The notes beneath the pieces are model-generated. The model made no database searches. It had not been told where the DNA came from and worked only from the letters and a program-made list of their open reading frames with translations. From Candidatus Limnocylindrales bacterium (GTDB taxonomy: Bacteria; Chloroflexota; Limnocylindria; Limnocylindrales; CSP1-4): 52,054 bases of DNA. Below, piece by piece: positions 6,136 through 45,732 of the stretch (its first letter is position 1; each line of letters opens with the position of its first letter). The position numbers and the translations under genes were made by a program. The DNA is taken from NCBI GenBank assembly GCA_025450915.1, contig JANWLH010000128.1, positions 1 through 52,054 of the forward strand, in the 5' to 3' direction.

Positions 6136-6975
6136 ATGAGTGAGGGCTCCGACGCTGCGGTCGCCCCGGACCCACGCTGGACAGCCAGCGGACCGCTCGG
6201 CGCGCCACTGATCGTGATGATCCACCCGACCCGGATGAACCGGACCTACTGGACTCCCCAGGTCGAGGCGCTGGCCCCGACCAATCGCATCCTCGTCATG
6301 GACCTGCCCGGGCATGGCCACCTCGAGCGTGAGCCGTTCACGCTGGCGTCGGCCGTGGCCGTCGTCCGTGCGGCGATCGAAACCGAGCGCGTCGCGATGG
6401 GCGACGCGGTGCCCACCGTGGTCGTTGGCCTCTCGCTCGGCGGCTACGTCGCGATGGCCCTCGCGGCCGAGGCACCCGAGCTCGCCGATGCCCTGGTCCT
6501 CGCGGGCGCGACCGCCGAGCCGACGGGACCCCGGGCCCACCCGTTCCGGGCCCTGGCCCTGGCCTACGAACGGGCCCACCACCTGTCCGTCGGCCGGCTC
6601 ACCGCTGCGTTCATCCGGCGGCGCTATCCCGGTGGCCTGGGCGATCTCCTTGTCACGTCGGGTTTCGCCTATCGAGGCGGGTCTGAGGCCCTCCGTTCAC
6701 TCGCGGGGGAGCCGTTCCTGCCTCGCCTGGCGTCCTATCCGGGCACGGTCGTCCTCGTCAACGGGGCCCGGGACGTCGCCATGCGACCGGGCGAGCGGCG
6801 CTTCCTCGAGAAGGCCCGCCACGGCCGCCTGGTCCGGCTGCCGGGCGCCTACCACCTCTCGAGCCTCGACCGGCCGGCCGAGTTCACCGCGGTGATCCGC
6901 TCCGCAGTCGCGGAGGCGGTCGCTTCAAGGCAGGCCGCCGATCCGGAGACCCCGGCCTCGATCCCGGACCGGTAA
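6136..6975 (+). CDS. Alpha/beta fold hydrolase
   Basis: DLPGHG, GLSLGG nucleophile elbow and C-terminal His (GAYH). Confidence 0.88.
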   Translation: MSEGSDAAVAPDPRWTASGPLGAPLIVMIHPTRMNRTYWTPQVEALAPTNRILVMDLPGHGHLEREPFTLASAVAVVRAAIETERVAMGDAVPTVVVGLSLGGYVAMALAAEAPELADALVLAGATAEPTGPRAHPFRALALAYERAHHLSVGRLTAAFIRRRYPGGLGDLLVTSGFAYRGGSEALRSLAGEPFLPRLASYPGTVVLVNGARDVAMRPGERRFLEKARHGRLVRLPGAYHLSSLDRPAEFTAVIRSAVAEAVASRQAADPETPASIPDR

Positions 6976-7149
6976 TTCCGGTTTACCAGCCCGGGTAGTG
7001 GTAAGGAAGGATCGACCTCAAACCTGGCTCCCGCAGCCTCCCCGAGCGGCCGATTCGTGCGTGAGTGCCGGCCGCCTGGACTTGAAGCGAGCCCAATCCG
7101 TCTCGACTCCTTGCTTACGACCACCTGGGCTGGTATCTCGGAAGAATCG
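6970..7149. repeat. Long imperfect palindrome element, copy E1 (180 bp)
   Basis: Arms 6970-7009 and 7110-7149 are inverted repeats (30/40 by manual count). TTCGTG|CGTG sits exactly at the symmetry centre. Confidence 0.85.
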
Positions 7150-7386
7150 GCTGTGGCACCGGCCCCACCTGTCGAATCATTGGCCAGCGCGCCGGTTCAT
7201 CCAGCGGATATATCGCGCAGCCGCCGGCGAGGGGCGCACGTCTCCTGGCCGGCCCGGGGCGCTACGCCGGGCTCGGGAGGGGACGCTCGCCGAGGCGGGC
7301 AAAGATCGTGTCGCGAACCTCGGCGCCTGGAGGTAGCCGGAACGCGTGGTGCCACTCCGGCGCCGTGCACGTAGACCAGCGTGGGC

Positions 7387-7456
7387 CCGCGACGCGCCCT
7401 ATCCCAGCCTCGCTGTTCGAAGCGGATCGCTGCGCCAAGGATAGGGCGCGTCACGG
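7387..7456. repeat. Hairpin with 14-bp perfect stem
   Basis: GACGCGCCCTATCC (7391-7404) pairs with GGATAGGGCGCGTC (7439-7452), extendable to 17/18. Confidence 0.8.
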
Positions 7457-7633
7457 TTCTTCCGGTCTACCAACCGGGGTGGTGGTAAGGAAGATTCAGA
7501 CGGTCGTCGCCTTGGCCGGCGGACGTCCGCGAGTCGATTCGTGCGTGCGGATGCATCTCGTCGGCCCGAAGTGGCCTGGATCCGGCTCCATTCCTTCCTT
7601 ACCACCACACCCGCTGGTATCTCGGAAGAATCG
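7454..7633. repeat. Long imperfect palindrome element, copy E2 (180 bp)
   Basis: Arms 7454-7493 and 7594-7633 (33/40). Colinear with E1 at offset 484 without gaps; shares CGATTCGTGCGTG and GCTGGTATCTCGGAAGAATCGGC with E1. Confidence 0.88.
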
Positions 7634-7670
7634 GCAGCCGACGGCCGATCTGGGGGGTGGATCGCCCTCA

Positions 7671-7836
7671 GAAACTGGCGAATATCAGTCCCCGTAGTGA
7701 TAGTCCGGATCCGAACCCCTCCCGAGCCTCGGACGAGCCCGGCTCGTGCACGAACCAGCGCGCCGTATCCACCACATCGCCGGATTCGGGGTCGAATCTC
7801 CGCGCAGCACCACGTCCACTAGTAATCGCCAGGTTC
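7671..7836. repeat. Long imperfect palindrome element, copy E3 (166 bp)
   Basis: Arm GAAACTGGCGAATATCAGT...GTAGTG matches the reverse complement of 7808-7836 (21/29). Internal TCGTGCACGA; left half is 10 bp shorter than in E1/E2. Confidence 0.75.
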
Positions 7837-7922
7837 CGCGCCGGCGCGGGGGCCAGGCCCGTGCCGTGGCGCGGCGCGGCCCAGACCCCAGCCACTCCTC
7901 GGGAATAGGCAACTGAGCGTGG

Positions 7923-7951
7923 TTGACCGACCGGGAGGCCTCGTCTATGCT
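7923..7951 (+). promoter_or_regulatory. Sigma70-type promoter of the rpsU operon
   Basis: TTGACC-17 nt-TATGCT. Confidence 0.7.
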
Positions 7952-8063
7952 CCGCCAGCCGTTCGACGAGCGTGGATTCCACGCTCCCGAAGCCTCCTCG
8001 GGCCCCTCCGGCCACGAGCCCGAAGAGTGCAGCTGACCCTGGCCGTAGGAGGTGATCCGGGAA

Positions 8064-8249
8064 TTGGCAGAAGTCCGCGTGGGTGAAAACGAGACCTTCG
8101 AGAGCGCCCTCCGCCGCTTCAACAAGAAGATCCAGCAGAGTGGAATCCTTGCCGAGGCTCGCCGTCGCGAGCACTACGAGAAGCCGAGCGTCAAGCGCAA
8201 GCGCAAGGAAGCCAAGCGCAAGAAGGCCGCCCGCACGTCGCAGAGCTAG
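8064..8249 (+). CDS. rpsU: 30S ribosomal protein S21
   Basis: [10 protein letters not shown]...[16 protein letters not shown]; TTG start after AGGAGGTGATCC. Confidence 0.96.
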
Positions 8250-8300
8250 GTCGAGAGACCTGCTCCGCACCGGGCGACCCGCCCGAGGTGCCAGCAACCG

Positions 8301-8753
8301 GTGACCCTCAAGGAACGCCTCCAGTCCGAGACGACCGCCGCAATGCGGTCGGGTGATTCGCTGCGCCGCGACACCCTTCGGATGGTCCAGAACTCCGCCT
8401 ACAACCTCGAGAAGAAGAGCGGCAAGCCGCTCACCGACGAGGAGCTGCTGGCGGTCGTCTCGCGCGAGGTGAAGACCCGCCGCGAGTCAGTCGAGGCGTT
8501 CCGCAAGGGCCATCGCGAGGATCTCGCTACCAAGGAAGAAGCCGAGATCGCGATCCTCGGCGAGTTCCTGCCCGAGCAGCTCGGCGAGGCCGAGATCCGG
8601 GACCTCATCGAGCAGGCCGTGAAGGCCACCGCCGCCGAGACGCCCCGGGACCTCGGCAAGGTGATGGGCTGGCTCGCGCCGCACACTCGCGGCCGGGCTG
8701 ACGGCAAGCTCGTCAGCTCGCTCGTGGCCGCGCGACTGGCCGGGGCCGGTTGA
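8301..8753 (+). CDS. yqeY: GatB/YqeY domain protein
   Basis: REVKTRRESVEAF, FLPEQL, DLGKVMG, GRADGK; conserved position after rpsU. Confidence 0.92.
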   Translation: MTLKERLQSETTAAMRSGDSLRRDTLRMVQNSAYNLEKKSGKPLTDEELLAVVSREVKTRRESVEAFRKGHREDLATKEEAEIAILGEFLPEQLGEAEIRDLIEQAVKATAAETPRDLGKVMGWLAPHTRGRADGKLVSSLVAARLAGAG

Positions 8754-8760
8754 GCCGCCG

Positions 8761-10953
8761 ATGAACGGCATGCTGGTCCAGCGACCGGCGCGGGCGATCC
8801 CCTTCACCCGGCGCGACCTGGTTCGACTGCTCATCTCGTCGATCCTGCTGATCGTCGCGCTGACGGCGGTGCTGGCATCGGACATCGTGCCGACCAAGCT
8901 CAGCGTGACCGCCGGCCAGGTGGCCACGGCCGACATCGTCGCGCCTCGAGCGACGACGTTCACGAGCCAGACCCTGACCCAGGAGGCGCGCGACGCGGCG
9001 AGCCAGGCGGTCGCACCGCAATACGACTACACCCCGGCCAAGGGCGACACGGTGGCCCAGGCCGCCACGGTCGAGCTCAACAGCGAGATCGCGCCCGCCG
9101 ACGCGGCGTTCTCAGCGACGCTCACCGAGGCAGCCCGCAAGGCCCTCCTCAAGAACGCGATTCCGGGCCTCTCCGACGAGTCGCAGGCGAACTTGCTGGC
9201 AATGACCCCGGATCGCTGGCCGGCGGTTCGCGACGAAGCCCGCCGCCTCCTGGCCCAGCTCGAGGGGTCCGAGCTCAGGGACACGGACCTCGACAGCACC
9301 CGGGCGAACCTCGCCGGCCTCGTCCTGGGCGGCCTCCAGGCCTCGGAGCGCCAGCTCGTGGCCGAACTCGTCTCGCCCGTGCTGACCGCGAACTCGTCCT
9401 ACAGCGCGGACCTCACCACCGCCGCCCGCGAGCAGGCTGCCGAAGGGGTCGCGCCGGTGACGGTCACCCTCAGCCAGGGTCAGACGATCGTGCGCAAGGG
9501 CGATCCGATCGGTGCCCTCGAGATCGAGGAAGTCCAGGCGTTCGGGCTCACGGATGCCCGCGTCGACGTGGCCCGCCTGGCCGGCTGGGCGCTCCTCGCG
9601 ATCCTGATCGTCGGGCTCGTCCTGGCCTGGATCTGGCGGTTCCGGCCGACGCTCTGGCACCGGACCAACGTCCTCGTCCTGATCGGGATGCTCCTCGTCT
9701 TCACGACCCTCGCCCTGAAGCTGACTGCCGGGCGGTCGGTCCTGCCGTTCTTCGTGCCCACGGCGGCGGCGGGGATCCTGATCGCGATCCTCCTCGACGC
9801 CAGTGCGGCGGTGATCCTCACTGCGGTGATCGCCGTCCTGGGCGGTGCGGTCAACGGCAACTCGCTCGAGATCACCGCCTACATCTTCCTGGGCGGGCTG
9901 GCCGGCATCGTTGCCGTCCGGCGGGGTGACCGGCTCAACGCGTTCGTCCAGGCGGCATTCGCGATCTTCGTCGTCAACGCCCTGGTCGTGTCGACCTTCT
10001 CATTGCTCGGTGAGCGCGACATCACCGGCGTCCTCCAGCTCTACGGCGCCTCGGCCGCGGCCGCCGGGGGATCGGCCATCGCGGCGGTCGGCAGCTTCGC
10101 GGTGATCGGCAACCTGTTCGGGATCCTGACCGTCTTCCAGCTGCTCGAGCTGGCCAATCCGTCGCAGCCGCTCCTCCGCCGCCTGCTGATCGAGACGCCT
10201 GGCACCTACCACCACTCGATCATGGTCGGGAACCTGGCCGAGCGAGCCGCCGAGGCGATCGGCGCCGATCCGCTGATCACCCGCGTCGCCGCTTACTACC
10301 ACGACGTCGGCAAGCTGGCCAATCCGCAGGCGTTCATCGAGAACCAGGCCGGCGGCGACAACGTCCACGACGAGCTCGATCCGGACGTCTCGGCGACGAT
10401 CCTCAAGGAGCACGTCGGCGACGGCATCGAGATCGCCTACCGGGCCCACCTGCCCAAGCCCCTGATCGCGTTCATCCCGCAGCACCACGGCACCGCCCGG
10501 CTGAGCTACTTCTACGCCAAAGCGCGCGACGAGGCCGCCGCGCCGTATGGCGGCCTGGACACGGCAGAGGGCGAGAAGGCGGCCGACGCCATCGACCAGC
10601 GGCTCTACCGCCATAACGGCCCCAAGCCACAGAGCCGCGAGGCCGCCCTGCTGATGCTCGCCGACGGGGTCGAGGCGTCGGTTCGGTCGCTCTCGTCACG
10701 CGACGAGCCGGCGATCCGGGCGATGGTCAACCGGATCATCGGCGAGCGCCTCCAGGACGGCCAGTTCGACGAATGCGACCTGACGCTGCGTGACCTCGAG
10801 CGGATCCGGGAGGCGTTCGTCGCCCAGCTGCTCGGGATGTACCACCAGCGGATCGCCTACCCGCAGTCGAAGATCGTCGAGCTCGAGTCGCGACGGCTCG
10901 CCGCCGGCGGCGGAACGGTCGAGAGCCACGGTCCGTCGAGCGATGGGGCCTGA
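8761..10953 (+). CDS. 7TM-HD (HDIG) phosphohydrolase, PgpH/YqfF-like cyclic dinucleotide phosphodiesterase
   Basis: Extracellular domain plus multiple TM helices, then PGTYHHS, YYHDVGK, QHHGT and MLADGVEA; lies upstream of ybeY as in Firmicutes. Confidence 0.92.
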   Translation: MNGMLVQRPARAIPFTRRDLVRLLISSILLIVALTAVLASDIVPTKLSVTAGQVATADIVAPRATTFTSQTLTQEARDAASQAVAPQYDYTPAKGDTVAQAATVELNSEIAPADAAFSATLTEAARKALLKNAIPGLSDESQANLLAMTPDRWPAVRDEARRLLAQLEGSELRDTDLDSTRANLAGLVLGGLQASERQLVAELVSPVLTANSSYSADLTTAAREQAAEGVAPVTVTLSQGQTIVRKGDPIGALEIEEVQAFGLTDARVDVARLAGWALLAILIVGLVLAWIWRFRPTLWHRTNVLVLIGMLLVFTTLALKLTAGRSVLPFFVPTAAAGILIAILLDASAAVILTAVIAVLGGAVNGNSLEITAYIFLGGLAGIVAVRRGDRLNAFVQAAFAIFVVNALVVSTFSLLGERDITGVLQLYGASAAAAGGSAIAAVGSFAVIGNLFGILTVFQLLELANPSQPLLRRLLIETPGTYHHSIMVGNLAERAAEAIGADPLITRVAAYYHDVGKLANPQAFIENQAGGDNVHDELDPDVSATILKEHVGDGIEIAYRAHLPKPLIAFIPQHHGTARLSYFYAKARDEAAAPYGGLDTAEGEKAADAIDQRLYRHNGPKPQSREAALLMLADGVEASVRSLSSRDEPAIRAMVNRIIGERLQDGQFDECDLTLRDLERIREAFVAQLLGMYHQRIAYPQSKIVELESRRLAAGGGTVESHGPSSDGA

Positions 10954-11518
10954 GTCGGTCTCAGCCTCGCGGTCGATCTACCTCCGCCCATGGCGGATCG
11001 ACATCACCACGCGGCCGGGCGTGCCGACCCTCGTGCCGTTCACCCGCCTGGCTCGGACGATCGGGGCCGCGCTCGAATCCGCGGACGCCCCACACCCGGC
11101 CTCGATCGGGCTGATTCTCGCCGATGACTCCGAGCTGGCAAGCCTGAACGTGGCCCATCTGGGCAAGGACGGAGCAACCGACGTGCTGTCCTTCCCGCTG
11201 CTGCCGGCCAATGCGTATCCGGCCCATCCCGGAGCGTCGCACCCCGGGAACCTGGCCGGCCCCGACGCCATTCCGTTTGCCCTGCCGCCCGGGCGACGCC
11301 CGCACCTCGGGGACATCGTGGTCTCGGTCGAACGAGCGACCGAGCAGGCCGAGGCCGGCCGCGGCGGCCAGACGGGCGATGTCCGCTGGTCGCCGGCCGA
11401 CGAGCTGCGCCTCCTCGTCAGCCACGGCACGCTCCACATCTGTGGCTGGGATCACGCCGAACCCGAGGAGGAGGCCGCGATGCGCGCCCTCGAGCAGCAC
11501 CTCCTCGTCGGGGGCTGA
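10943..11518 (+). CDS. ybeY: rRNA maturation RNase YbeY
   Basis: TDVLSFP, LGDIVVS and HGTLHICGWDH (HxxxHxxxxDH). Start uncertain. Confidence 0.92.
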   Translation: MGPESVSASRSIYLRPWRIDITTRPGVPTLVPFTRLARTIGAALESADAPHPASIGLILADDSELASLNVAHLGKDGATDVLSFPLLPANAYPAHPGASHPGNLAGPDAIPFALPPGRRPHLGDIVVSVERATEQAEAGRGGQTGDVRWSPADELRLLVSHGTLHICGWDHAEPEEEAAMRALEQHLLVGG

Positions 11519-11665
11519 TTCTCGGTGCGCCGGGCGGGCCCGCCCTCAGCCACTCGCTCGCGACGCTGATACCATCGTCCAGGGCCCGCCGCGGACGGTT
11601 TGGGTCCTGTCAGCGTGCACGCGCAACGGCGCGGAGCGCGCCCTTTGGCATGTCGCGGAGCGTTC

Positions 11666-12364
11666 GTGAAGATCGTCGTCGGCCTGGGAAACCCGGGCAG
11701 CCAGTACGCGAAAACCCGTCATAACGCCGGTTGGATGGTCCTCGACAAGATCGCCGATCGAGCCGGCTGGTCGGGTCGCGGCCGGACCCGCGACGCAAGC
11801 TCGGTGGTCCAGGGCCGGTTCCGCGGCCTCGACCTGATCCTCGTCAAGCCGCTCACGTTCATGAACGATTCGGGCCTGGCCGTGCGCAAGGTGCTGGCTC
11901 GCGAGCACGCCCCGCTCGTCGACCTGCTCGTGGTCGCCGACGACTTCGCCCTGCCGTTCGGCAAGCTGCGCTTCCGCGAGGGTGGCAGCGGCGGCGGACA
12001 CAACGGCCTCGGCTCGATCATCGACGAGCTCAGCAACGAGGGCTTCAGCCGGCTGCGAATCGGGATCGGCGATCCCGAGCATCGCGCCATCGACCACGTC
12101 CTGTCCGCGTTCACGCCCGACGAGCAGGCCCGGATGGACGAGCTCCTCGAGGCCGCCGCCGACGGCGTCGAGGCGTGGGCCCGCGACGGGACCTCGAAGG
12201 CCGCCAACCGGTTCAACAGCTTCCTGCTCCGACCGGCCGATGCCGAGCGGCAGGCGGCGCCCGGCGAGATCGACGGGCCACCCGGCGTCGACGGTGTCCG
12301 CCGGACGAAGACCGGCTGGCGCAAGCCGCGACCGATCGATCCCAACGGCGAGTCCGGCGAATGA
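11666..12364 (+). CDS. pth: Peptidyl-tRNA hydrolase
   Basis: IVVGLGNPG, TRHNAG, KPLTFMNDSG, GGHNGL and RLRIGIG motifs. Confidence 0.96.
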   Translation: MKIVVGLGNPGSQYAKTRHNAGWMVLDKIADRAGWSGRGRTRDASSVVQGRFRGLDLILVKPLTFMNDSGLAVRKVLAREHAPLVDLLVVADDFALPFGKLRFREGGSGGGHNGLGSIIDELSNEGFSRLRIGIGDPEHRAIDHVLSAFTPDEQARMDELLEAAADGVEAWARDGTSKAANRFNSFLLRPADAERQAAPGEIDGPPGVDGVRRTKTGWRKPRPIDPNGESGE

Positions 12365-12377
12365 ACGAGCCTCGCGA

Positions 12378-17658: not shown

Positions 17659-17724
17659 ACTGCAACGGCCGCAGTCGGTCCCGCTGCGAGGAAGCCAGCC
17701 ACCTCATCGGAGGCCCCAGCCGAT

Positions 17725-18246: not shown

Positions 18247-18257
18247 GCCAGAGTACG

Positions 18258-22922: not shown

Positions 22923-22947
22923 CTAGCGAGGGTACCGCGCCCGAAGG

Positions 22948-23119
22948 TTGGGACCGATGTCGGCAGGGGACGCATTACGCCCAAGTCCAGGGCCGCGACG
23001 GCCCTCGGGCGGACGCTGGTGGCCGCTTTCGTGCACGGACTCAGCTGCTGATCCGCTGCAGGGCCTCCCCGCCTGCGCCGGCCTGGACGTACCGCGTCTG
23101 ATGACGACAATCGTCCCAA
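22948..23119. repeat. Long imperfect palindrome element, copy E4 (172 bp)
   Basis: Terminal arms 19/26 inverted identity; GTGCAC (23031-23036) exactly at the centre. Confidence 0.8.
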
Positions 23120-23180
23120 GTCGGGCCCGGGAGCTGAGTGGGCGGAGTCGCCGGAGACCCCCGTCGACTGCCCTCAGACG

Positions 23181-23352
23181 TTGGGAAGAATGTCGCCCGC
23201 AGCCGCATTGCGGTGGAGTCAGGGGTCAGCGAGGCCCGTGACAACGTCCACTTCGCCGAGTTCGTGCACGAGCGAGCCGGTTGCCACGCCCGATTCGAGC
23301 CCAATTGGCGAGATCTTGACGGCAACGCGCCTGGGGGCGGCATTCGTACCAG
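23181..23352. repeat. Long imperfect palindrome element, copy E5 (172 bp)
   Basis: Terminal arms 24/31 inverted identity; TTCGTGCACGAG with GTGCAC (23264-23269) exactly at the centre. Left arm resembles that of E4. Confidence 0.82.
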
Positions 23353-23408
23353 GTCAGGCCGGTGGCGGGGGCCGCGGGCCTTGCCGGTGGGCTGGGACGA
23401 ATGCGCTC

Positions 23409-24089
23409 CTAGAAGGCAGGCGACACCGACGGGCCCGGGGCGAGGCCGCTCAGGTCGATCGTCGTGTTGCCGCTGCCGTAGATCCGGTTGCACACCGTGG
23501 CGAGGGCCGCGGAGAGGATCGCGTAGTTCGCGTCGCCGATGTTGTTCGTGTTGTTGGCCGCGTCCATCAGCGCACCGACGCCTGGGACGTCCTCGGCGCT
23601 CACGTCAACGCTGCAGTAGACATCGCCTTTGAGCGCGGCGAACGCAGGCGATTCATTGTTGCTATCCCACATGGCCTTGTCGCCAACTCCTGGCAGCGGG
23701 GCAGGGCTGGCGAACTCCGAGACATCGCTGTCGTACTGGGCCGTCCCGTCCGAGCCGCCCGCGACTTGCACGTCGACGTTCACGCTCGCGTCGGCCGCCT
23801 CGAACCGGCACTCCTGGCCCGTGCCGCTGAGGCCGAACGCGGTGACCGCGACCTGGGTGATCGGCGCGTCGAGCAACGGCTGAACCTGGTCGAATGTGAG
23901 CTGCTTGCACGTGGCGCTCGTGCCGCCCGTCGGTGCGACGGAGGCCCCTGGGGCAGCCGACGAGCCGCCGTCGCTCGACGACCCCGCGGCCGGCGAGCCG
24001 CCGGAGCCTCCCGAGCTGCCTGAGCAGCCGGCGAGGACGACCGCCGCGACGATCAGGCCGGCCGAGCTGGTGCGAACGAAGCGATGCAT
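23409..24089 (-). CDS. Hypothetical lipoprotein (DUF3558-like)
   Basis: AGGAG RBS, LAGC lipobox, S/G linker, paired Cys and LPGVGDKA motif. Confidence 0.72.
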   Translation of the reverse strand: MHRFVRTSSAGLIVAAVVLAGCSGSSGGSGGSPAAGSSSDGGSSAAPGASVAPTGGTSATCKQLTFDQVQPLLDAPITQVAVTAFGLSGTGQECRFEAADASVNVDVQVAGGSDGTAQYDSDVSEFASPAPLPGVGDKAMWDSNNESPAFAALKGDVYCSVDVSAEDVPGVGALMDAANNTNNIGDANYAILSAALATVCNRIYGSGNTTIDLSGLAPGPSVSPAF

Positions 24090-24203
24090 CGGATTCTCCT
24101 GGTGGCAGCGGGCCACTTGAACGGCGCCGATTGCCTCGACGCTCGCCCAAGTTGCGATACGCCGATCGCAATTCGATCGCAGGATCGAATCCGCTACCGT
24201 TGA

Positions 24204-34092: not shown

Positions 34093-34102
34093 GTCGCGGC
34101 GG

Positions 34103-37623: not shown

Positions 37624-37638
37624 CCCGCCGGCGACCCG

Positions 37639-38766: not shown

Positions 38767-38770
38767 GGGA

Positions 38771-39535: not shown

Positions 39536-40956
39536 GACGCCTTCGCCTCGAGCACTGGGCCGACGGTTGGAGGCTCGGACTCCGTTACCCGGCCGTCCGC
39601 GATGACGAGCACGCGATCGGCGACCTCGGCAACCAGGTCCCGGTCGTGGGTCGCGACCACCACCGAGCAGCCGTCTGCCCGGAGGCGATCGAGCACCCGG
39701 GCGAGCGACCGGCGGGCGAGCTCGTCCATGCCCCGGGTCGGCTCATCGAGCAACGCGATCGCAGGGTTGCCGGCGAGGATGACCGCCAGCGCGCCGCGTT
39801 GCCGCTCGCCGGCGCTGAGATCGCGCGGGTCACGCTCCGCGAGCTCGGCCAGCCCGAATTCCGCGAGGGCGGCCCGGCCGGCGGCCTCCAGCTCGCCCTG
39901 ACCACGTGCTGGCCCAGGGCGATTGGTGGCCGCTCGCTCGAGCGTCCAGAGGACCTCGGCCAGCAGGCTCGGGCGGTGGAGGAGCGCCCCGGGATCCTGG
40001 GGCAGGTACGCGGTCCGGCCCGGGAGTCGGTCGACCGAGCCCGAGAGCGGCGGGAGCAGGCCGGCGATCGCCCGCAACAGCGTCGTCTTGCCGCTGCCGT
40101 TCGCACCGGTCAGGGCAAGGACCTCACCAGGCTGTCCGCTCAATCCGCCACAGGAGACCAGGGGAATGCCGCCGGGTCCGACGACGAGCTGATCGGTCGA
40201 CCAGGCCGGCTGATCCGCGCTTGCCGATCTCGCTGCCGGCGGCCGTAGCCGGGCCGGCGGTCCGACGAGGATCGGCCGCCCTGCCGGAGCGTCGACGCGG
40301 CCCCCGGCCAGCCTGACAAACGATGTGGCCACCGGCACCAGCCGCTCGAGCCGGTGCTCGGCGATCAGGATTGCGGTGCCACCGGCGGCGAGGTCGAGGC
40401 ACCCGTCGAGGACGGCCGCCTCGCCGCTTGCGTCCAGCTCTGAGGTCGGCTCATCGAGGACGATGAGTCGCGGCGCCATCGCGAGGACCGAGGCGATCGC
40501 CACGCGCTGGCGTTCGCCGCCGGACAGGGTGCCGACCCGTCGGTCGCGCAGGCCTTCGAGCCCGAGGCGTTCGAGCGCTGCGCCGACGCGCAGGACCATC
40601 GCGGCGCGGCCGATGCCCAGGTTCTCGAGCCCGAATGCGACCTCGCGCTCGACGCTGCCGTAGACGACCTGCCGCTCGGGGTCCTGGAAGACGAAGCCGA
40701 CGTCACGGGCGAGGACCCGGGTCGCCGTGCGGCTGACGTCGTGGCCGAAGACGGTCGCAGTCCCGCCGATCCGGCCGCCGTGGAAGTGGGGGATCAGGCC
40801 ATTGAACAGGCGCAGCAGCGACGACTTGCCGCCCCCGGAGGGTCCGACGACGACGGTCAGGCCGGGCTCGAGCTCGAGGTTCACATCGACCAGGGCGGGA
40901 ATCTCTCCCGGATACCAGTAGGAGAGATCGTCCAGGCTCGCGAGTGCGTCGCTCAT
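39532..40956 (-). CDS. ECF transporter tandem ABC ATPase
   Basis: Two Walker A motifs (GPSGGGKS, GANGSGKT), VFQDPERQ, LSGGE/LSAGE and two LDEPT. Confidence 0.92.
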   Translation of the reverse strand: MSDALASLDDLSYWYPGEIPALVDVNLELEPGLTVVVGPSGGGKSSLLRLFNGLIPHFHGGRIGGTATVFGHDVSRTATRVLARDVGFVFQDPERQVVYGSVEREVAFGLENLGIGRAAMVLRVGAALERLGLEGLRDRRVGTLSGGERQRVAIASVLAMAPRLIVLDEPTSELDASGEAAVLDGCLDLAAGGTAILIAEHRLERLVPVATSFVRLAGGRVDAPAGRPILVGPPARLRPPAARSASADQPAWSTDQLVVGPGGIPLVSCGGLSGQPGEVLALTGANGSGKTTLLRAIAGLLPPLSGSVDRLPGRTAYLPQDPGALLHRPSLLAEVLWTLERAATNRPGPARGQGELEAAGRAALAEFGLAELAERDPRDLSAGERQRGALAVILAGNPAIALLDEPTRGMDELARRSLARVLDRLRADGCSVVVATHDRDLVAEVADRVLVIADGRVTESEPPTVGPVLEAKAS

Positions 40957-41768
40957 GGCCAGATCGCCACGGCCGGCAGCAGCGCAGCGACGAACATGGC
41001 CGGGCTGACCGGGGGGATCGAGAGGCCCGGGTAGGGATACCAGTCGACGGCGACGCCGGCCGCCCGCGCCCACACGGCCAGGGCGATTGCGGCGACCGAG
41101 ACGACGACGACGATCGAGTCGCGCAGCCTCCAGGCCCGCGGCGCGTACCGGCTGCGCGGTCCCGAGCCGAACGCCCGCGACTCCATGGCTTCGGCGAGCT
41201 CGAGCGAGCCTTCGACGGCGGTGATCGCGACGGGCACGATGACGTCGGCCCACGACCGGAGGCCGGCTGGTCGCCAGCCGCGCATCGTCTGGGCGTCGCG
41301 CACCTGGCCGAACGACCGTCCGATCCCGGGCACCAGGTTGAGGGCCGCGGCTACGACGATGCCCGCCCGCTCGAGGACCTTGGGCAGCGCGTCGACGAGC
41401 TCGGCCGGCTCGAGGACGTAGGACAGCGGCGCGACGACGAGCACCGCCGCGGCCAGGCCCAGCGCGGCGTCGCTCCCGTAGGCGATCGATTCGAGGGTCC
41501 ATGGGCCACCGATGACCGGCCAGCCGCCGGGCAGCGAGATGAGCGCGGTATCACCAAGATGCCCGACCGCCACGTTGAGGAAGACGGCGCCAACGGTCGT
41601 GAATGCGATCGCCCGGACTAGGAAGCGGAGGTCCTGCTCGGGCCGGCTCCAGGTCCGCAGGACGTTGACCGCGATCAGGGCGATCAGGGCGCGATAGATC
41701 GGGTTCGTCGTGGACAGGGCGACGACGAGCCCGGCAAGCGACCAGACGATCAGGGCGCGGGCGTTCAC
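40953..41768 (-). CDS. ECF transporter transmembrane T component
   Basis: AQTMRG and AEAMESRAF motifs with TM helices. Confidence 0.9.
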   Translation of the reverse strand: MNARALIVWSLAGLVVALSTTNPIYRALIALIAVNVLRTWSRPEQDLRFLVRAIAFTTVGAVFLNVAVGHLGDTALISLPGGWPVIGGPWTLESIAYGSDAALGLAAAVLVVAPLSYVLEPAELVDALPKVLERAGIVVAAALNLVPGIGRSFGQVRDAQTMRGWRPAGLRSWADVIVPVAITAVEGSLELAEAMESRAFGSGPRSRYAPRAWRLRDSIVVVVSVAAIALAVWARAAGVAVDWYPYPGLSIPPVSPAMFVAALLPAVAIWP

Positions 41769-42619
41769 CGGGTTGGTCCGCCCGAGCCGGGCCGGCGCCT
41801 GAGCATTGCCAGTCCGGCGAGGCCCGCGATCGCCACGATCGCGGCCACGAGGGCCGGTGTCCCGTCCCCGGTTGAACCGGTGGGGGAGTCAGCATTGCCG
41901 CCACCCACGACCGGGCTCGACGGTCCTGGAGTGGCCTCGATCGCGGCGACCGCGCCGCTCCCGGCCGGCGTCGGGGGAACCGAAGATGCCGCCGGGCCAG
42001 CGCTCGACGCCGCCGGCTGGGACGGCGCCGTAGAGCCCGGGGGTGGCGGCGTGACGGGCCGGGGCGTCGCGGTCTGCGTCGGTGCCTGAGTGGCGGTTGG
42101 CCGCGGCGTCGGCCTGGGCGTGACGCCCGGCGTCGGCGTTGGCGACGGGCAGTTGCCCAGGCTGCTCGGCGGCGACATTCCCGTCTGCGCTTCGAAACGG
42201 AAGCCTTCCGCGTCGCCGTCGCCGAAGACCAGGGCGGAGACGCCCAGATTGGAGCTCGCCCAGCTTCCGCCTTTGCGAGCGACGAAAATCTCCCAAAACG
42301 GGCTGTTGCTCGTCCAGCAGCCCGACGGAATCTCGGCCGGCTCGCCGTCGATCCAGCAGATCGCATTACTCAAGCCGCCGAAGTCCATCGTCACGTACTT
42401 GACGCCCGATGCGATGAGGACCTGCTCTCCGGTCAGTGACGAGCCGCTGAACGCGATACATCGAGTCACCGTGGAGCCGTCGCCGTGCTCGACGACGAGG
42501 GCGACGTGGTGGCTTCCGGTCGCCGCGTCGCAGGTCGCCGCCGGCCTCGACCAGGCAATTGCCATGATCGGGACCTGGACGGCGACCGCGACGAGGACCG
42601 CCAGGAGCAGGTTCCGCAA
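41765..42619 (-). CDS. Membrane-anchored protein with transcobalamin beta-domain/DUF4430-like domain
   Basis: Signal peptide; ICWIDG...FWEIF...G.W..SNLGV......GDAEGFRF pattern; P/T linker; C-terminal TM followed by RRR. Confidence 0.65.
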   Translation of the reverse strand: MRNLLLAVLVAVAVQVPIMAIAWSRPAATCDAATGSHHVALVVEHGDGSTVTRCIAFSGSSLTGEQVLIASGVKYVTMDFGGLSNAICWIDGEPAEIPSGCWTSNSPFWEIFVARKGGSWASSNLGVSALVFGDGDAEGFRFEAQTGMSPPSSLGNCPSPTPTPGVTPRPTPRPTATQAPTQTATPRPVTPPPPGSTAPSQPAASSAGPAASSVPPTPAGSGAVAAIEATPGPSSPVVGGGNADSPTGSTGDGTPALVAAIVAIAGLAGLAMLRRRPGSGGPTR

Positions 42620-42621
42620 CC

Positions 42622-43779
42622 TCAGCGTGAGAGCCGCCTCGACCAGAGGCGGAGGCTGGCGCCGAGTGCCGCGAGGCTGAGCATCAGGAGCACGGGCAGC
42701 AGGCCGCCGTCAGCTGGCGTCTGACCCAGCGGCGCCGCAGCTGCCGTCGCGGGTGGGGTGGCCCCGGTCGGCCGGGGAGTCGCGACCGCCGCGCACACGG
42801 CCGCCGGCAGGGCCGCACCCGCCGTCCACGTCGTGCTTCCCGGGAACGGGACCTTGGCGAGGCCCGCCGGGACCTGGCTCGTCGTGAAGGCGTCGGGACC
42901 GGGATTGCCCGGGAAGGTGAAGCCGCCGTTGGCCTTGGACTGGAACGTCAGCAGGTTGGTCAGGGCGGTGTGGCCACTCTTGGTCCAGCTCGGCGCCGAC
43001 GGGTTCTCACCGGCGGCCACCAGCCCCTGGATCACGTTCGCATCGGAGTCGGGGTCGCTGAACGGCGACCCGAACGCGGCGCTGTACGGGAATCCACCAT
43101 CGCTGAGCTGCTGGGCGTGGAGGTAGGCCAGGGCGCTCGTGATCGAAGCGTCGGACGTCGGCGTCCCCGCGGCGACGAGGGCCTCGAGCGCGATCGCCGT
43201 CGAGTTCGTGTCGCCGCCGCCGACGGCATCCTTGACGCCCTGGAAGTCCCACGAGCCGTCGGTGTCCTGGGCCGCGATCAACTCGGTCACGGCGCCGGCC
43301 GGCAGGGGATGGCCCGCATCGGCCGCCGCCACCAGGGCGAGGATCGCCAGCGACTGGGTGTACGTCTGGCCGTCACCATAGGCGTGGGTCGTCGAATCGA
43401 ACGTCGCGTCGAGCGCCGTCAGGAGATCGTGCCCGCCGAATGCGGTCGGGTCGAGCTTGGCGTCGATCGCCGCGAGGGCCTCCTTCGCGACGAGTGACGC
43501 GTTCGTCAGCGAGCCGCCGATGCCCGCCTCGAGGTAGTCGAACGCCGTGCTGCCGCCGGACTTCTCGAGAATCGTGGGGTCGAAACCGGCCGCGGCCGCT
43601 CCGAAGACGTAGTCGGCTGTCACGCCCGGCGCTCCGCCGACGGACCCGTCACTGGCCTGTCCCGAGGCGAGGAACTGGAGCGCGCACGTCGCCGGATCCG
43701 GCGCTGCCCAGGCAGCTGGGACGTTGATGAGAAGGAGTCCTGTGGCCAGTATCGCGCTGGCCCACCTGAGTCGACCCAC
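42622..43779 (-). CDS. Membrane-anchored prenyltransferase/squalene-cyclase repeat (alpha6/alpha6 barrel) protein
   Basis: Signal peptide; repeats GQASDGS, AQDTDGSW, QQLSDGGF and FQSKANGGF; C-terminal TM with basic tail. Confidence 0.8.
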   Translation of the reverse strand: MGRLRWASAILATGLLLINVPAAWAAPDPATCALQFLASGQASDGSVGGAPGVTADYVFGAAAAGFDPTILEKSGGSTAFDYLEAGIGGSLTNASLVAKEALAAIDAKLDPTAFGGHDLLTALDATFDSTTHAYGDGQTYTQSLAILALVAAADAGHPLPAGAVTELIAAQDTDGSWDFQGVKDAVGGGDTNSTAIALEALVAAGTPTSDASITSALAYLHAQQLSDGGFPYSAAFGSPFSDPDSDANVIQGLVAAGENPSAPSWTKSGHTALTNLLTFQSKANGGFTFPGNPGPDAFTTSQVPAGLAKVPFPGSTTWTAGAALPAAVCAAVATPRPTGATPPATAAAAPLGQTPADGGLLPVLLMLSLAALGASLRLWSRRLSR

Positions 43780-43871
43780 GGTGGTTCCTCCGACGGCGAA
43801 CGGCCCACACCGCGGAAACCTGCCGTCAGAGGTTCATCTACCGATCTGCGCGGGTGGGATGACACATCCCG

Positions 43872-44030
43872 TTCGACCAGGTCTCCTGGCTCGCGGATCG
43901 ACACGTCCGGCCGCCTTCCCGGGCTCACGCCCAGTGGCATCACTGGCCGGCCGTTCCCCGCTGACAGTTGCGCGACAGCGCCGGATTTCCACCGGCTTCC
44001 CTTGGGTCAAACGGCACTATTCAGTTGTCC
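43872..44030 (-). ncRNA. Cobalamin riboswitch
   Basis: Minus strand reads AAGGGAAGCCGGTGGAAATCCGGCGCTGTCGCGCAACTGT...GCCACTGGG...GGGAAGG...GAGCCAGGAGACCTG (B12 box). Boundaries approximate. Confidence 0.93.
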
Positions 44031-44074
44031 GGCCATGGTACTCGCCGAACGATTCCCCGGTCAGCGCCCTCGGT

Positions 44075-44254
44075 GGGGTCGTTGTCGCACGCAGATCGAC
44101 AAACAGCGCGGTTCTGAGCTGACCGACGGGTTCTGGCTCAGTCACGCGGTGGATTCGTCGCTGTGTTAGCCGCCAACGGCTAATTCCGGCAAGCCGAGCG
44201 AGTTTGGGCGGCTCAGAACGGGCGATTTGTCACGTGGCCCGGGACATCCAACCC
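44075..44254. repeat. Long imperfect palindrome, tentative copy E7 (180 bp)
   Basis: GACAAA..GC..GTTCTGAGC / GCTCAGAAC..GC..TTTGTC inverted repeat plus weaker outer arms. No clear central GTGCAC. Confidence 0.6.
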
Positions 44255-44282
44255 GATCCGCCCGCGAGGGACGACGACGCGG

Positions 44283-45476
44283 CTACGCGCGCTTGCGCTG
44301 CAGGTCCAGGAAGGGCAATTTGACGACCGTCGCGGCGACCCGGCCGCGGCGGGCCTCGACCGTCCACTCTGCCTGGAGCTGCGTGCCGGGCCGCTCGTAG
44401 GCGGGGGGCACCGAGGCGAGAGCGATCGGCTTCTTGAGGATCGGGCTCCAGCCGTGGCTCGTGATCCGGCCGACCTGCCGACCGCCGGCATCGTAGAGCG
44501 GGATCGCGGAGCGATCGACCACGGCCGGGGCGCCCGGAGGCAGGCCCTGGGCGTTGTACATCGCGTCGATGTCCGGCCAGCTGATCTCGAGCCCGACGAG
44601 CCGTCGGCGTGGCCCGCCCCGACGACGCTCCTCGAGCAGCGCACGCCGCCCGACGAAATCGCCCTTCTCGAAGTCGACGAGCTTGCCCAGCCCGATCTCC
44701 CCGGGCGAGTAGGCCTGGTCGGCGTTCATCGCATGGCGGGCGCTCGTGTAGTCGACCTCGAGGAGGATGAGCCCGGCCTCCAGCCGGACGACGTCGAGGG
44801 CGATCATCCCGGCCGGCCGGATCCCGTACGGCTTGCCGGCCGTAATGACTGCATCCCACAGGTCGACGGCGCGCTCCGCCGCGACCCACAGCTCATAACC
44901 GAGGTCGCCGGTGTAGCCCGTCCGGCTGATGTCGATCGGGATGCCCGCGATCGTCGCCGTGCGTCGCCGGAAGTAGCGCAGATCGGCGAGGTCGCCGGCC
45001 CCGGCCGCCTCGAGGACCGCCCGGCTGAGCGGCCCCTGGAGGGCCAGCGCGGCAGTCGCCTCGGAGGTGTCGTCGATCGTCACGTCGAGCCCGGCCGCGT
45101 TGAGGCTGAGCCAGCGGAATTGCGGATCGGCCGCGGTCCAGCGGAACCGGTTCGGCCCGAGGCGGTGGATCGTGCCGTCATCGACGACCTTGCCGTCCTC
45201 GTCGCACCACGGGCCGTAGAAGACCTGCCCGACCTTCAGCTTTGTCGCGTCACGAGTGATCACCCGGTCGACGAGCTGCTCCGCGTCGGGTCCGTGGACC
45301 TCGTACTTGTAGAGCGGCGAGACGTCGATCAGGGCCGCCTGCTCGCGGATCGCGTTGTACTCGATGTCGTGGAAGTCGGCGTAGACGCTGGCGGCGAAGT
45401 AGCCCGACCACTCCCGCCATTGCATCTTCCGGTTGTACGCCAGGGTGCGGGCGTGAAAGGCGGTCCCGACGCTCAA
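44283..45476 (-). CDS. Aminomethyltransferase (GcvT/DmdA-like folate-binding) family protein
   Basis: EYNAIRE.AALIDVS, ALQGP, SRTGYTGDLGYEL and RLEAG; GGAGG before the TTG start. Confidence 0.9.
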   Translation of the reverse strand: MSVGTAFHARTLAYNRKMQWREWSGYFAASVYADFHDIEYNAIREQAALIDVSPLYKYEVHGPDAEQLVDRVITRDATKLKVGQVFYGPWCDEDGKVVDDGTIHRLGPNRFRWTAADPQFRWLSLNAAGLDVTIDDTSEATAALALQGPLSRAVLEAAGAGDLADLRYFRRRTATIAGIPIDISRTGYTGDLGYELWVAAERAVDLWDAVITAGKPYGIRPAGMIALDVVRLEAGLILLEVDYTSARHAMNADQAYSPGEIGLGKLVDFEKGDFVGRRALLEERRRGGPRRRLVGLEISWPDIDAMYNAQGLPPGAPAVVDRSAIPLYDAGGRQVGRITSHGWSPILKKPIALASVPPAYERPGTQLQAEWTVEARRGRVAATVVKLPFLDLQRKRA

Positions 45477-45562
45477 GCTGGCTCCTCCGATTCGGCCACC
45501 GGCGACTCCGGCGGGCCAAGTATGCAGATTTCCTATTCACTCTGGATGGCACGAGCCGGAAC

Positions 45563-45732
45563 TTCGTCCGGATGTCGCCGGCAGACGCTGCGGGCGAGGA
45601 TCCGGCCGAATTGGTCGGCAGAGCTCAATTCCTCGGTGTCAACCGTGCCCGACCGCCGGTCACCGAAGGGCGAATCGGAGGACGACAAGCCCAAACCTGG
45701 CGGACCGCGTCTGGTGACGACATTTGGACGAA
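45563..45732. repeat. Long imperfect palindrome element, copy E6 (170 bp)
   Basis: Arms 22/28 inverted identity. Right arm CCGCGTCTGGTGACGACA is nearly identical to E4 CCGCGTCTGATGACGACA; CGTG|CCCG lies exactly at the centre. Confidence 0.8.

Follow-up and report, generated by a model that had tools for sequence, protein, structure and literature searches.

Correia elements are bounded by terminal inverted repeats of 26 bp, and BIME/REP sequences are associated with a periodicity of DNA wrapping by gyrase. The BIME/REP elements of enterobacteria bind IHF and DNA gyrase (PMC2817692). Correia elements (CREE/NEMIS) are described as MITEs with an internal IHF site (PMC10969869), while REPIN/RAYT systems pair REP doublets with a REP-associated tyrosine transposase (PMC3116915; RAREFAN and 'Ancient Darwinian replicators' preprints).

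Here we analysed a window, i.e. the whole stretch of 52,054 nucleotides, from the 2.48-Mb MAG of an uncultured soil bacterium of the Limnocylindria (Chloroflexota; G000, 69.6 % complete). Its palindromic elements resemble REPINs in being short extragenic inverted repeats dispersed in the genome, in forming several families per genome that each flank their own gene copy (an analogy of arrangement only), and in their apparently vertical inheritance, long persistence and conservation above neutral DNA. They differ from REPINs in the enzyme, which is predicted to fuse an XRE helix-turn-helix (HTH) domain to a PD-(D/E)XK nuclease fold instead of being an HUH Y1 transposase, in a length of ~174 bp, an interior that does not pair and a helical phase, whereas REPINs are hairpin-forming doublets, and in a coding sequence that extends into the element. 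Repeats flanking a cognate gene were found here, a RAYT gene and a hairpin doublet including the spacer were not. With Correia elements (PMC10969869) they share the intergenic location, a size of 100-200 bp, terminal inverted repeats, a putative internal protein-binding or bending site and clustering; unlike these, they show no TA-type or other target duplication, interiors unrelated between copies, strictly quantised half-lengths and a linked nuclease gene, and no sequence similarity is claimed. The extragenic position, often 3' of genes, and a suggested role in DNA topology recall BIME/REP elements (PMC2817692), as do periodic signals compatible with wrapped DNA, whereas the arms described here are long, sequence-specific and of many families, and REP stem-loops are absent.

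A multi-copy gene that had so far escaped notice and encodes a putative DNA-binding nuclease lies between element pairs, and the elements appear to be its partner sites. With moderate confidence, we favour a gene-plus-repeat system comparable to REPIN/RAYT and inherited for the most part vertically, which would use a different enzyme, recognise duplex geometry, and bind and cut its elements.

Anatomy of the elements in the window and the genome

All six palindromic elements claimed by the original prediction are present in the window, and their boundaries were refined with arm profiles (no strand is assigned to any of them). E1 (family A, 6973-7146, 174 bp, halves 87/87) has the arms TTCCGG-N3-TACCAGCC..GTGGTAAGGAAGG and the centre GATTCGTGCGTG at 7052-7063, a centre that is repeated at 7537-7548 in E2 (family A, 7457-7630, 174 bp). 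E3 (family C, 7670-7837, 168 bp) follows with the arms AACTGGCGAATATCAG-N6-GTAGTG and the centre CTCGTGCACGAA at 7743-7754; this tandem of A then C recurs at G000 C1:21324-21713. Positional orthologues were found in G002 for E1, in G012 for E2, and in G013, G012 and G004 for E3. The arms of E4 (family B, 22947-23120, 174 bp) read sTTGGGACGAWTGTCGCC-N4-GACGCRYTAC, with TTTCGTGCACGG as centre at 23027-23038, while those of E5 (family B, 23180-23353, 174 bp; centre GTTCGTGCACGA at 23260-23271) are degenerate, with E-values of 5e-5 and 4e-3 in the arm-profile search. E6 (B-prime type, 45562-45733, 172 bp) combines the arm CTTCGTCCGGATGTCGCCGGCAGACGC with the degenerate centre AACCGTGCCCGA at 45641-45652.

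The geometry described earlier was also recovered. GTGC lies at the midpoint in six of six elements, in E6 in the degenerate version CCGTGCCCGA; the T-R-Y-C-R box placed 75.5 bp off the axis starts at arm position 12-13, where it is found in 17/20 family-A and 34/54 family-B arms; and the left half of E3, said to be 10 bp shorter, measures 79 bp vs 89 bp on the right. The sequence GCCCTCAGA, reported to precede both E3 and E5, does occur twice in the window, but the same is seen in 16/100 shuffles, and it is absent from every other element of the genome.

A generic repeat finder reported 25 pairs, among which E1 and E2 were the only window elements, and coding DNA also yields many inverted pairs with 71-81 % complementarity. 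An unbiased inverted-repeat scan nevertheless gave 57 hits in the intergenic 10 % of the genome vs 28 in the coding 90 %, which, together with the dispersed genome-wide copies, indicates more than chance. Searching the whole genome with the arms by nhmmer returned 41 complete calls (A 10, B 28, C 3), 39 of them non-redundant, as one B call lies on a duplicate contig and one C call is the locus of an A call. All complete calls are intergenic according to gene calls from a crude home-made caller. They span 163-196 bp in total and share one anatomy, in which conserved arms of ~35 bp enclose a central TCGTGCRYG box within ~174 bp overall. At least six further arm types exist beyond A, B and C, so that a genome holds nine or more arm families. 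The six window stretches are real solo copies of this large dispersed superfamily of ~174-bp elements.

Helical phasing and folding

Half-elements measured from the outer end to the GTG/C dyad are 86-87 bp long in 43 of 52 cases in family B, with variants of 76-77 bp (2) and 96-97 bp (3), and 87-88 bp in 14 of 20 cases in family A, with 98 bp in 2. A/T steps are phased at ~10.3 bp in the two arm families, whose WW-step peaks coincide at positions 2, 10-12, 30-31, 39-41, 49-51, 61, 72 and 81-82. The Fourier amplitude of family B at 10-11 bp amounts to 0.062, whereas shuffles reached 0.027 at most (0/1000), and the phasing of family A at the same period was matched in 1/1000 shuffles. Among the candidates of the original prediction, the 10-bp half-length steps, the phasing and the conserved arms and centre favour a multi-site protein-binding or DNA-wrapping element. 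HipB operators are spaced dyads, and the dyad TACCA-N10-TGGTA, perfect in 10/20 family-A arms, resembles these; the fit of such an HTH-dimer dyad within the arm is clear in family A alone, family B resembling the null.

It is highly improbable that the element acts as a structured RNA or an ssDNA foldback, that is, as a long hairpin formed in RNA or offered to an HUH-type enzyme. Whole elements do fold better than shuffles on both strands, with z-scores from a weak -1.7 (E3, + strand) to -7.5, and in one polyA compost RNA run a 262-nt contig covers the right part of E5 together with the end of the neighbouring gene. The folding signal is, however, confined to the arms. Interiors pair no better than chimeras (hairpin energy -36.5 for elements vs -37.8 kcal/mol for chimeras, p=0.81, n=27), alignment pairing tests gave p=0.23-0.89 with mirrored positions pairing just as chimeras do, and among variable arm positions there is neither covariation nor compensatory change, positions 18-21 and 28-29 pairing below the control. 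Y1_Tnp (PF01797) had no hit in the 5/5 genomes tested, its control being positive in 6/14 named genomes, and 10-bp length steps and WW phasing are properties of duplex DNA. Rfam at the gathering threshold matched a cobalamin riboswitch as its sole hit in the whole window and no element, and at E<=1 it returned 0 hits over 6900-7900, E4-E6 being covered by the gathering search alone; the claim that the element belongs to no named family is consistent with our searches. Both hairpin candidates of the original prediction are therefore disfavoured, the ssDNA foldback substrate by chimera-like interior pairing and the lack of covariation, the long hairpin RNA additionally by the lack of an Rfam match.

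A putative nuclease gene beside the elements

A multi-copy gene of ~245 aa, labelled in public databases as HTH regulator only, was found beside the elements. As it lies outside the window, with no hit of the HTH-nuclease profile on the window's contig, it could not be seen when the elements were first predicted. In G000, the copies at C15 and C36 (two) and six distant paralogues adjoin B, B-prime, A, G, F and H elements, and the arm type of E6 also brackets the gene at C36:512-1249.

Across the genus, 23/33 gene copies have an element at their 3' end vs 111/1990 (5.6 %) of the G000 genes in an identical scan, with a P value of 8e-22 that is overstated because the 33 loci, like the 79 of the wider set, are kin. 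This wider set from other Chloroflexota MAGs has an element in the 3' window of 36/72 loci vs 7/70 after moving that window by 420 bp, in the 5' window of 28/74 vs 8/74 in the shifted one, and in either window of 46/67, leaving 10/33 genus copies and 21/67 wider loci with no element at the threshold used. The coding sequence runs into the 3' element, whose start falls within -9..+7 nt of the codons for a conserved C-terminal Phe-Leu motif of the HTH-nuclease in 24/36 3' elements (24/72 loci). Moreover, in 7/14 loci the 5' arm of a gene and its 3' arm are more alike than the 95th percentile of comparisons between loci, and arm types match at paralogues that are just 25-30 % identical. The linkage as such could reflect inheritance instead of function. 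Still, we lean towards the solo elements being cognate sites of a multi-paralogue HTH-PD-(D/E)XK family, with each paralogue bracketed by its own arm type.

The XRE match spans the N-terminal 66 residues (HTH_31, E=1.4e-11; TIGR03070 couple_hipB, E=1.4e-11, below the family cut-off), and Foldseek places this part with HipB/SinR. In the AF2 model (pLDDT 83.9), residues 79-174 form a helix, three strands, a helix and a further strand, for which Foldseek returned the R2 restriction-like endonuclease (RLE) domain (9dou_A, E=3.2e-4), AF1548 and EndoMS, and structure neighbours in the Atlas were NERD and Mrr_cat (TM 0.62-0.67). Residues E102, D115, E130 and K132 do not vary among 24 sequences, and the predicted protein thus has both the fold and the E..D..(E/D)xK residues of the PD-(D/E)XK superfamily. 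Among curated families none fits the nuclease domain, Pfam MmcB-like (E=0.01) and UPF0102 (E=0.014) both staying below their cut-offs. The C-terminal fold and the conserved E..D..ExK are shared with the RLE domain of R2 retrotransposon proteins, AF1548, EndoMS/NucS, NERD and Mrr (9dou_A, 1y88, 5gke), at the level of the fold alone with 11-21 % identity, and in contrast to R2 there is no reverse transcriptase here. The N-terminal domain and a predicted dimer via this domain recall XRE repressors of the HipB/SinR/C-protein type, from which the protein differs by its fused nuclease fold, the absence of a HipA-like partner gene and putative sites located in paired 35-bp arms ~130 bp apart. The homodimer model scored 0.60, a mark reached by 20/30 proteins solved as pairs and 1/23 solved as single chains, vs 0.01 for the best control, with contact agreement >= 54 % and pLDDT >= 78 across the runs; as the HTH domain is the interface, this pass may merely mirror the resemblance to solved XRE dimers.

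In the gene-plus-repeat system that we favour, an integral number of helical turns would separate the arms from the central box, with phased A/T steps running along the spacers. HTH dimers would bind both arms, and bending of the phased spacer DNA could let arms and centre meet on a single protein assembly. The nuclease domains would then cut, and repair or recombination between elements may result in copying, movement or homogenisation.

Filled sites, empty sites and probable exchange between elements

The three window loci are both filled and empty across 15 genus genomes. The E4/E5 site carries one B element in G015 and an empty spacer of 34-55 bp in G011, G003 and G014; the E6 site is empty in 7/15 genomes and holds related elements in G008 and G014; and the E1-E3 spacer varies from 41 to 1446 bp. 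No filled/empty pair is close enough for base-level mapping, and spanning contigs from three soil samples contained no excised forms of E4 or E5. A target duplication, considered in the original prediction, is not visible beyond 1 nt: in 16 oriented family-B copies, the flank logos reveal a conserved cGA to the left of the element and CTs to its right, with just a 1-nt direct C..C (or G..G) and no longer direct repeat. Positional orthologues agree at 448/576 arm positions (78 %, somewhat inflated by anchoring the alignment on the arms), 103/144 centre positions (72 %) and 383/650 interior positions (59 %), the baseline for unrelated interiors being 50 %. Only one trio shares its interior (80-88 % identity) and most solo copies match no other interior, so recent copying is rare.

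Presence and absence at orthologous sites would also be expected of ordinary MITEs, i.e. IS remnants mobilised in trans by a conventional transposase missing from the assemblies, with the HTH-nuclease gene as passenger or landing site. We consider this quite unlikely. Small size, intergenic location, terminal inverted repeats, insertion polymorphism and the lack of an own transposase match such elements, as do tandem clusters and arm counts that range from 0 to 35 among species of the genus. Contig ends frequently fall inside elements, the repeats therefore breaking assemblies, and IS elements are often missed in assemblies; rve or DDE_Tnp_1 hits do occur in G002, G014 and G007. On the other side, neither a target-site duplication nor, among three transposase families searched and with G000 69.6 % complete, an insertion sequence that bears these ends and could be the parent was found, and DDE_Tnp_1, rve and Y1_Tnp had no hit in G000 or in G015, which is assembled in five contigs and holds 35 B arms. 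Each lone arm inspected belonged either to an ordinary element whose second arm is degenerate or to one truncated at the end of a contig. Dead copies in decay would not keep arms and centre conserved in orthologues while interiors are unrelated between copies, and a passenger gene would neither tie the start of the element to one particular codon in 24/36 cases nor show matching arm types across such distant paralogues.

Conservation of arms, centre and spacing in place is likewise compatible with static architectural or regulatory sites, namely operator arrays of an HTH repressor or nucleoid organiser that rarely spread. The 5' element might, for example, serve autoregulation, and elements between convergent genes might insulate them or manage supercoils, the nuclease fold having no role in movement. 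Such an account, which we regard as unlikely, fits the HipB/SinR-like XRE domain, the 5' element ending 49-98 nt upstream of the start codon in most loci, where an autoregulatory operator is expected, the enrichment of family B between convergent genes (13/23 vs 15.8 % of spacer length, p=9e-6), the three samples free of excision variants and a gene locus syntenic in two species. It is opposed by the invariant E..D..ExK residues, which from sequence argue for an active nuclease, by whole-element differences among orthologous spacers, by the many arm families that each adjoin a gene of the HTH-nuclease family, and by concerted evolution at C36.

There, the element-gene-element unit is syntenic with one in G014. 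Its flanking elements are ~92 % alike within G000 and ~84 % within G014 (identities counted by eye), with 97/176 columns invariant among all four. The two elements flanking the C36 gene are homogenised within the genome, and this concerted evolution speaks for DNA transactions between elements.

Census and anatomy of the elements

The genome that contains the window (G000) is assembled to 2,481,858 bp on 170 contigs, with 70.3 % G+C and a completeness of 69.6 %. All six palindromic stretches of the original prediction were found in the window, namely E1 (6973–7146), E2 (7457–7630), E3 (7670–7837), E4 (22947–23120), E5 (23180–23353) and E6 (45562–45733), each consisting of two inverted arms of ~35 bp, a central TCGTGCRYG box (degenerate in E6) with a GTG|C dyad at the midpoint and the interiors between them. 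Profiles built from their arms and run over the genome with nhmmer yielded three arm families. Family B, with E4, E5 and E6, gave 62 arm hits that make up 28 complete elements (one on a duplicate contig) and six lone arms, family A (E1, E2) gave 21 hits and 10 complete elements, and family C (E3) gave 8 hits and three complete elements, one of them the same locus as an A call. The arms read sTTGGGACGAWTGTCGCC-N4-GACGCRYTAC in family B, TTCCGG-N3-TACCAGCC-N5-GTGGTGGTAAGGAAGG in family A and AACTGGCGAATATCAG-N6-GTAGTG in family C. Family B elements are mostly 174 bp (11 copies) or 173 bp (8) long, the others measuring 172 bp (2), 175 bp (1), 177 bp (1), 163 bp (2), 183 bp (2) and 184 bp (1).

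Judged by a crude home-made gene caller, 41 of 41 complete calls are intergenic, with no gene overlap in 39, 3 nt in one and 54 nt in another. Convergent genes flank family B elements in 13 of 23 cases, compared with 15.8 % of the spacer length (p=9e-6), a bias absent in families A and C. A generic repeat finder alone singles out only E1 and E2 among 25 pairs. An arm-agnostic inverted-repeat scan of the genome, requiring at least 24 of 32 complementary positions and a total length of 150–210 bp, returned 85 hits, of which 57 fall in intergenic DNA (~10 % of the genome) and 28 in coding DNA, and revealed at least six additional arm families, such as GGGTACCnGGTACCTCAAAwGGCCGATTTCG and GTGTACCCAGTACAACAAAC. 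These results speak against equally good dyads in shuffled or background DNA, which would have refuted the original prediction. No autonomous element bounded by arms was detected, all lone arms being ordinary elements or contig ends. The duplicate contig noted for family B reflects a shared stretch of 480 bp at 98 % identity (C100:1–480 and C25:17740–18220), which includes one element and stems either from assembly redundancy or from two strains in the bin. In the window, a lone fragment resembling the family B arm core, GGGACGAATGCGCTC (23394–23408), sits immediately next to the stop codon of a gene (23409–24116, −) and may be what is left of a third element in this spacer between E4 and E5.

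When copies are oriented by the single-nucleotide direct repeat at their ends (C...C, or G...G on the opposite strand), family B has the consensus cGA|CTTGGGACGAWTGTCGCYGGCAGACGCACTAC ... CCGTGCGTGG ... GTAGCGCGTCYGGTGGCGACATTCGTCCCAAC|CTs. The distance from outer end to central dyad is 86–87 bp in 43 of 52 half-elements of this family, the exceptions including 76–77 bp (2) and 96–97 bp (3), while in family A the value is 87–88 bp for 14 and 98 bp for two of 20 half-elements. The left half of E3, predicted to be 10 bp short, indeed measures 79 bp next to 89 bp on the right; with the other half-length variants, E3 therefore becomes one case of a general rule by which elements differ in length by full helical turns. 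Peaks of A/T dinucleotides lie at positions 2, 10–12, 30–31, 39–41, 49–51, 61, 72 and 81–82 from the outer end, in families A and B alike despite their different arm sequences, and among 1000 shuffles each, none surpassed the amplitude of the 10–11 bp period for B and one did so for A.

Other sequence features were less general. The T-R-Y-C-R box described earlier corresponds to arm positions 12–16, where it forms the first half of an intra-arm dyad in family A and no dyad in family B. The family A dyad, TACCA-N10-TGGTA, is perfect in 10 of 20 arms, against a rate of 3.6 % among random intergenic 32-mers; since it holds for family A alone, it was discarded as a general HTH operator. Relative to all intergenic DNA genome-wide, family B interiors are 4-fold enriched in GATTC/GAATC (GANTC-type words) and 5-fold in GTGCA/TGCAC, and these words may be linked to a methyltransferase or to the site of the nuclease. 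CcrM-type methylation sites were considered for the former, which shows no positional pattern other than the general WW phasing. The ends of family B, GTTGGGAC...GTCCCAAC, raised the possibility of an integron attC site, which was rejected since the box order is the reverse of attC, where RYYYAAC precedes GTTRRRY. A promoter-like reading of the arms (TTGGGA...CACTAC spacing), judged by eye, was weak and was given up. The sequence GCCCTCAGA, said to precede both E3 and E5, is present at both but absent from every other element of the genome; its two matches in the window compare with 0.75 expected, 16 of 100 shuffles reach two, and it probably reflects chance or a local duplication.

Constraint on duplex DNA

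Whole elements fold better than shuffles (z −1.7 to −7.5), a signal that derives from the arms alone. After trimming 36 nt per end and removing the centre, we compared the pairing of each element's own interiors with chimeras that combine its left interior with the right interior of another copy. Own and chimeric interiors paired with −36.5 and −37.8 kcal/mol, respectively (p=0.81, n=27), their alignment scores did not differ (p=0.23–0.89), and the fraction paired at mirrored positions stayed at the chimera level, falling lower at the variable arm positions 18–21 and 28–29. As the interiors pair like chimeras, covariation is lacking and Rfam contains no match to the elements, both the ssDNA foldback and the long hairpin RNA had to be abandoned as candidates. 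The constraint acts on duplex DNA and not on a folded strand, and we consider it very improbable that the elements are structured RNAs. The contig of one polyA RNA run covers only window positions 23282–23540 and, as a contig rather than raw reads, is uninformative on transcription.

An HTH-nuclease gene linked to the elements

While checking the lone arms, we came across a small ORF between two B elements (C15:1214–1981), outside the window. This HTH-nuclease gene is flanked by elements at many of its loci in the genus and in other Chloroflexota MAGs; the original prediction had suggested a search for a gene family that co-occurs with the element. All 16 genomes of the genus carry the family, with 1–7 matches each; G000 encodes three close copies and six distant paralogues (hmmsearch E=4e-14 to 8e-7). 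The protein comprises ~245 aa, of which residues 1–66 form an XRE helix-turn-helix (HTH_31, E=1.4e-11). Beyond residue 66 no curated family was matched, MmcB-like (E=0.01) and UPF0102 (E=0.014) both staying below cut-offs, and NCBIfam and PADLOC recognized the HTH domain only. Residues E102, D115, E130 and K132 are invariant among 24 sequences. In the AlphaFold model (pLDDT 83.9) the N-terminus matches HipB/SinR and the C-terminus matches R2 proteins in their restriction-like endonuclease domain (E=3.2e-4), AF1548, EndoMS and PfoI, while structure neighbours in the Atlas outside its own family are NERD and Mrr_cat. A homodimer model passes with 0.60 against 0.01 for the best control. Among proteins with a structure solved as a pair, 20 of 30 reach this mark, and among those solved as a single chain 1 of 23. 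At least 54 % of contacts agree between the runs, at a pLDDT of at least 78. As the interface lies within residues 1–80, the result may stem from a resemblance to XRE dimers of solved structure. At E<=1e-30 the family spans 828 clusters at 50 % identity, publicly annotated only as 'XRE-family / helix-turn-helix transcriptional regulator', so that the nuclease half and the link to repeats are invisible in databases.

Within G000, the C15 copy lies between two B elements, one copy on C36 (512–1249) between two B-prime elements (the E6 type) in direct orientation, and the 3' end of a second C36 copy runs into an A element. Among the distant paralogues, a G-type (C55), an F-type (C144) and an H-type element (C91) adjoin the 5' side and an H-like element the 3' side (C10), and none was found at C148 and C147. 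Across the genus, the 3' window of 23 of 33 copies holds an inverted-repeat element compared with 111 of 1990 genes (5.6 %) of G000 in an identical scan, a linkage with a nominal p of 8e-22 among loci that are kin. We extended this to 79 loci in other Chloroflexota MAGs, drawn from the best 80 of 339 confirmed matches. Here elements occur in 36 of 72 3' windows (7 of 70 in a control shifted by 420 bp), in 28 of 74 5' windows (8 of 74 in the shifted control) and in either window at 46 of 67 loci. The start of 24 of the 36 3' elements falls within −9 to +7 nt of conserved C-terminal Phe-Leu codons, so the tail of the protein is encoded inside the element. The two elements of one gene bear the same arm type, their arm identity exceeding the 95th percentile of between-locus identity in 7 of 14 loci. 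The element–gene–element unit on C36 is syntenic with one in the genus member G014, with both neighbouring genes aligning. Its two flanking elements are ~92 % identical in G000 and ~84 % in G014 (counted by eye), and only 97 of 176 columns are identical across all four, with the differences in the interiors. This likeness within each genome indicates that the pair was homogenised or regenerated in each lineage and, by implication, that elements exchange DNA.

The best-supported explanation in our analysis is a gene-plus-repeat system that would resemble REPIN/RAYT in logic, employ another enzyme class and act on duplex-DNA geometry. What the data show is the anatomy and phasing of the elements, their lack of a hairpin signature, the gene linkage, insertion polymorphism, conservation in place and concerted evolution. 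In the biochemical steps we infer, HTH dimers would bind the arms, phased bending of the spacers would bring arms and centre together, the nuclease domains would cut the element, and recombination or repair would then spread or homogenise the elements. In its full form, we can put this forward only tentatively: an unrecognised class of prokaryotic intragenomic repeats, in which the enzyme that may recognise and cut, and so propagate or homogenise, helically phased dsDNA elements of ~174 bp is of neither DDE, HUH nor serine type but an XRE-HTH-PD-(D/E)XK nuclease, with dozens of paralogue/arm-type pairs co-diversified across Limnocylindria and other Chloroflexota. With neither a RAYT nor a hairpin, the elements lack what defines REPIN/RAYT systems. 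That they are ordinary MITEs whose transposase remained unassembled appears quite improbable to us. A few rve or DDE hits do occur in three genomes of the genus (G002, G014, G007), but DDE_Tnp_1, rve and Y1_Tnp, the three transposase families searched, have no match in G000 or in G015, which carries 35 B arms on 5 contigs. Two hallmarks of MITEs are thus missing, a parent IS by this search and a target duplication longer than 1 nt at the element ends. In the literature, repeat tables in supplements aside, we found no description of the elements or of Limnocylindria repeats, nor any account that pairs REP-like repeats with a PD-(D/E)XK protein; what is new is that a probable partner gene has been found for the elements.

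To our knowledge, REP/REPIN–RAYT are so far the sole well-described short repeats that persist long with a dedicated, vertically inherited enzyme. If the nuclease reading is true, a second system with an unrelated enzyme and duplex geometry would mean that such a lifestyle arose more than once. It would also account for a large share of the intergenic DNA of Limnocylindria, an abundant, uncultured class of soil and freshwater, and would offer a natural library of sequence-specific nucleases with cognate sites readable beside each gene; as the presumed site adjoins each paralogue, the specificity code would be directly testable. The strict 10-bp steps and A/T phasing would then show, in clean natural form, how a protein imposes a loop on ~170 bp of DNA.

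Distribution and orthologous sites

Allowing up to two mismatches, the family B arm pattern occurs in G000 and, at 1 to 35 arms per genome, in 9 of the 15 further members of the genus. It is absent from 9 of 9 other genera in the family and has a single 2-mismatch hit among 16 genomes of a sister family; the reversed control pattern was found in none of the genomes searched. Comparison of orthologous loci for empty sites, as originally proposed, showed that spacers differ by whole elements within the genus. The E4/E5 site is empty (34–55 bp) in G011, G003 and G014, holds one B element in G015 and in G013 and G012 is occupied by another arm family, which shares the centre box. The E6 site is empty (91–149 bp) in 7 of 15 genomes, and related elements occupy it in G008 and G014. 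The E1–E3 spacer (6976–8078, 1.1 kb) is an insertion hot spot, its orthologues being as short as 41 bp in G011 and as long as 1446 bp in G009. No excised form of E4/E5 was seen among spanning contigs of three soil DNA samples, which as contigs cannot show rare excision.

Positional orthologues exist for E3 in G013, G012 and G004 and for E1 in G002. Over eight such pairs, identity is 78 % in the arms (448/576), somewhat favoured as the alignments were anchored there, 72 % in the centre (103/144) and 59 % in the interiors (383/650), with unrelated interiors giving 50±8 % in the same alignment (Fisher's test: arms vs interiors p=1.5e-12, centre vs interiors p=0.006). As lengths stay within 158–175 bp and coding DNA is 81–92 % identical, the dissimilarity of the interiors is the neutral drift expected at this divergence, while arms, centre and spacing are held in place. 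Within G000, an interior is still common to only one trio of copies (80–88 %). Static operator or architectural sites, which we regard as unlikely, would share this conservation in place, but not the exchange implied by the homogenised flanking pairs. Paired arms seem to vary in step at the E3 locus, the orthologue in G012 (C120, L157) having AATATTCG in both arms where G000 and G013 have AATATCAG and ACTAGTAAT (read by eye).

Several minor observations concern the neighbourhood of these sites. The 618 bp spacer of G013 (C277, L013) orthologous to E4/E5 contains a small ORF starting ATGGGGGATGGACAGG... beside a D-type element, so spacers can gain short genes as well. Two conserved operator-like boxes flank E6 at 45519–45550 and 45791–45825 (AAGTATGCAGAT..GGATGG and GCTAGACTGCATACG..TTGCATAG) and are adjacent in another arrangement, AGTATGCGGTAGAGTCGTGCATGAAACCTATGCAGCCTGCATG, in seven genomes of the genus. 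They look like a putative shared regulatory site of the divergent gene pair, between the halves of which elements would thus have landed. A cobalamin riboswitch (RF00174, 106 bits, E=1.3e-25) is located at 43859–44025 (−), upstream of a minus-strand gene cluster ending at 43623.
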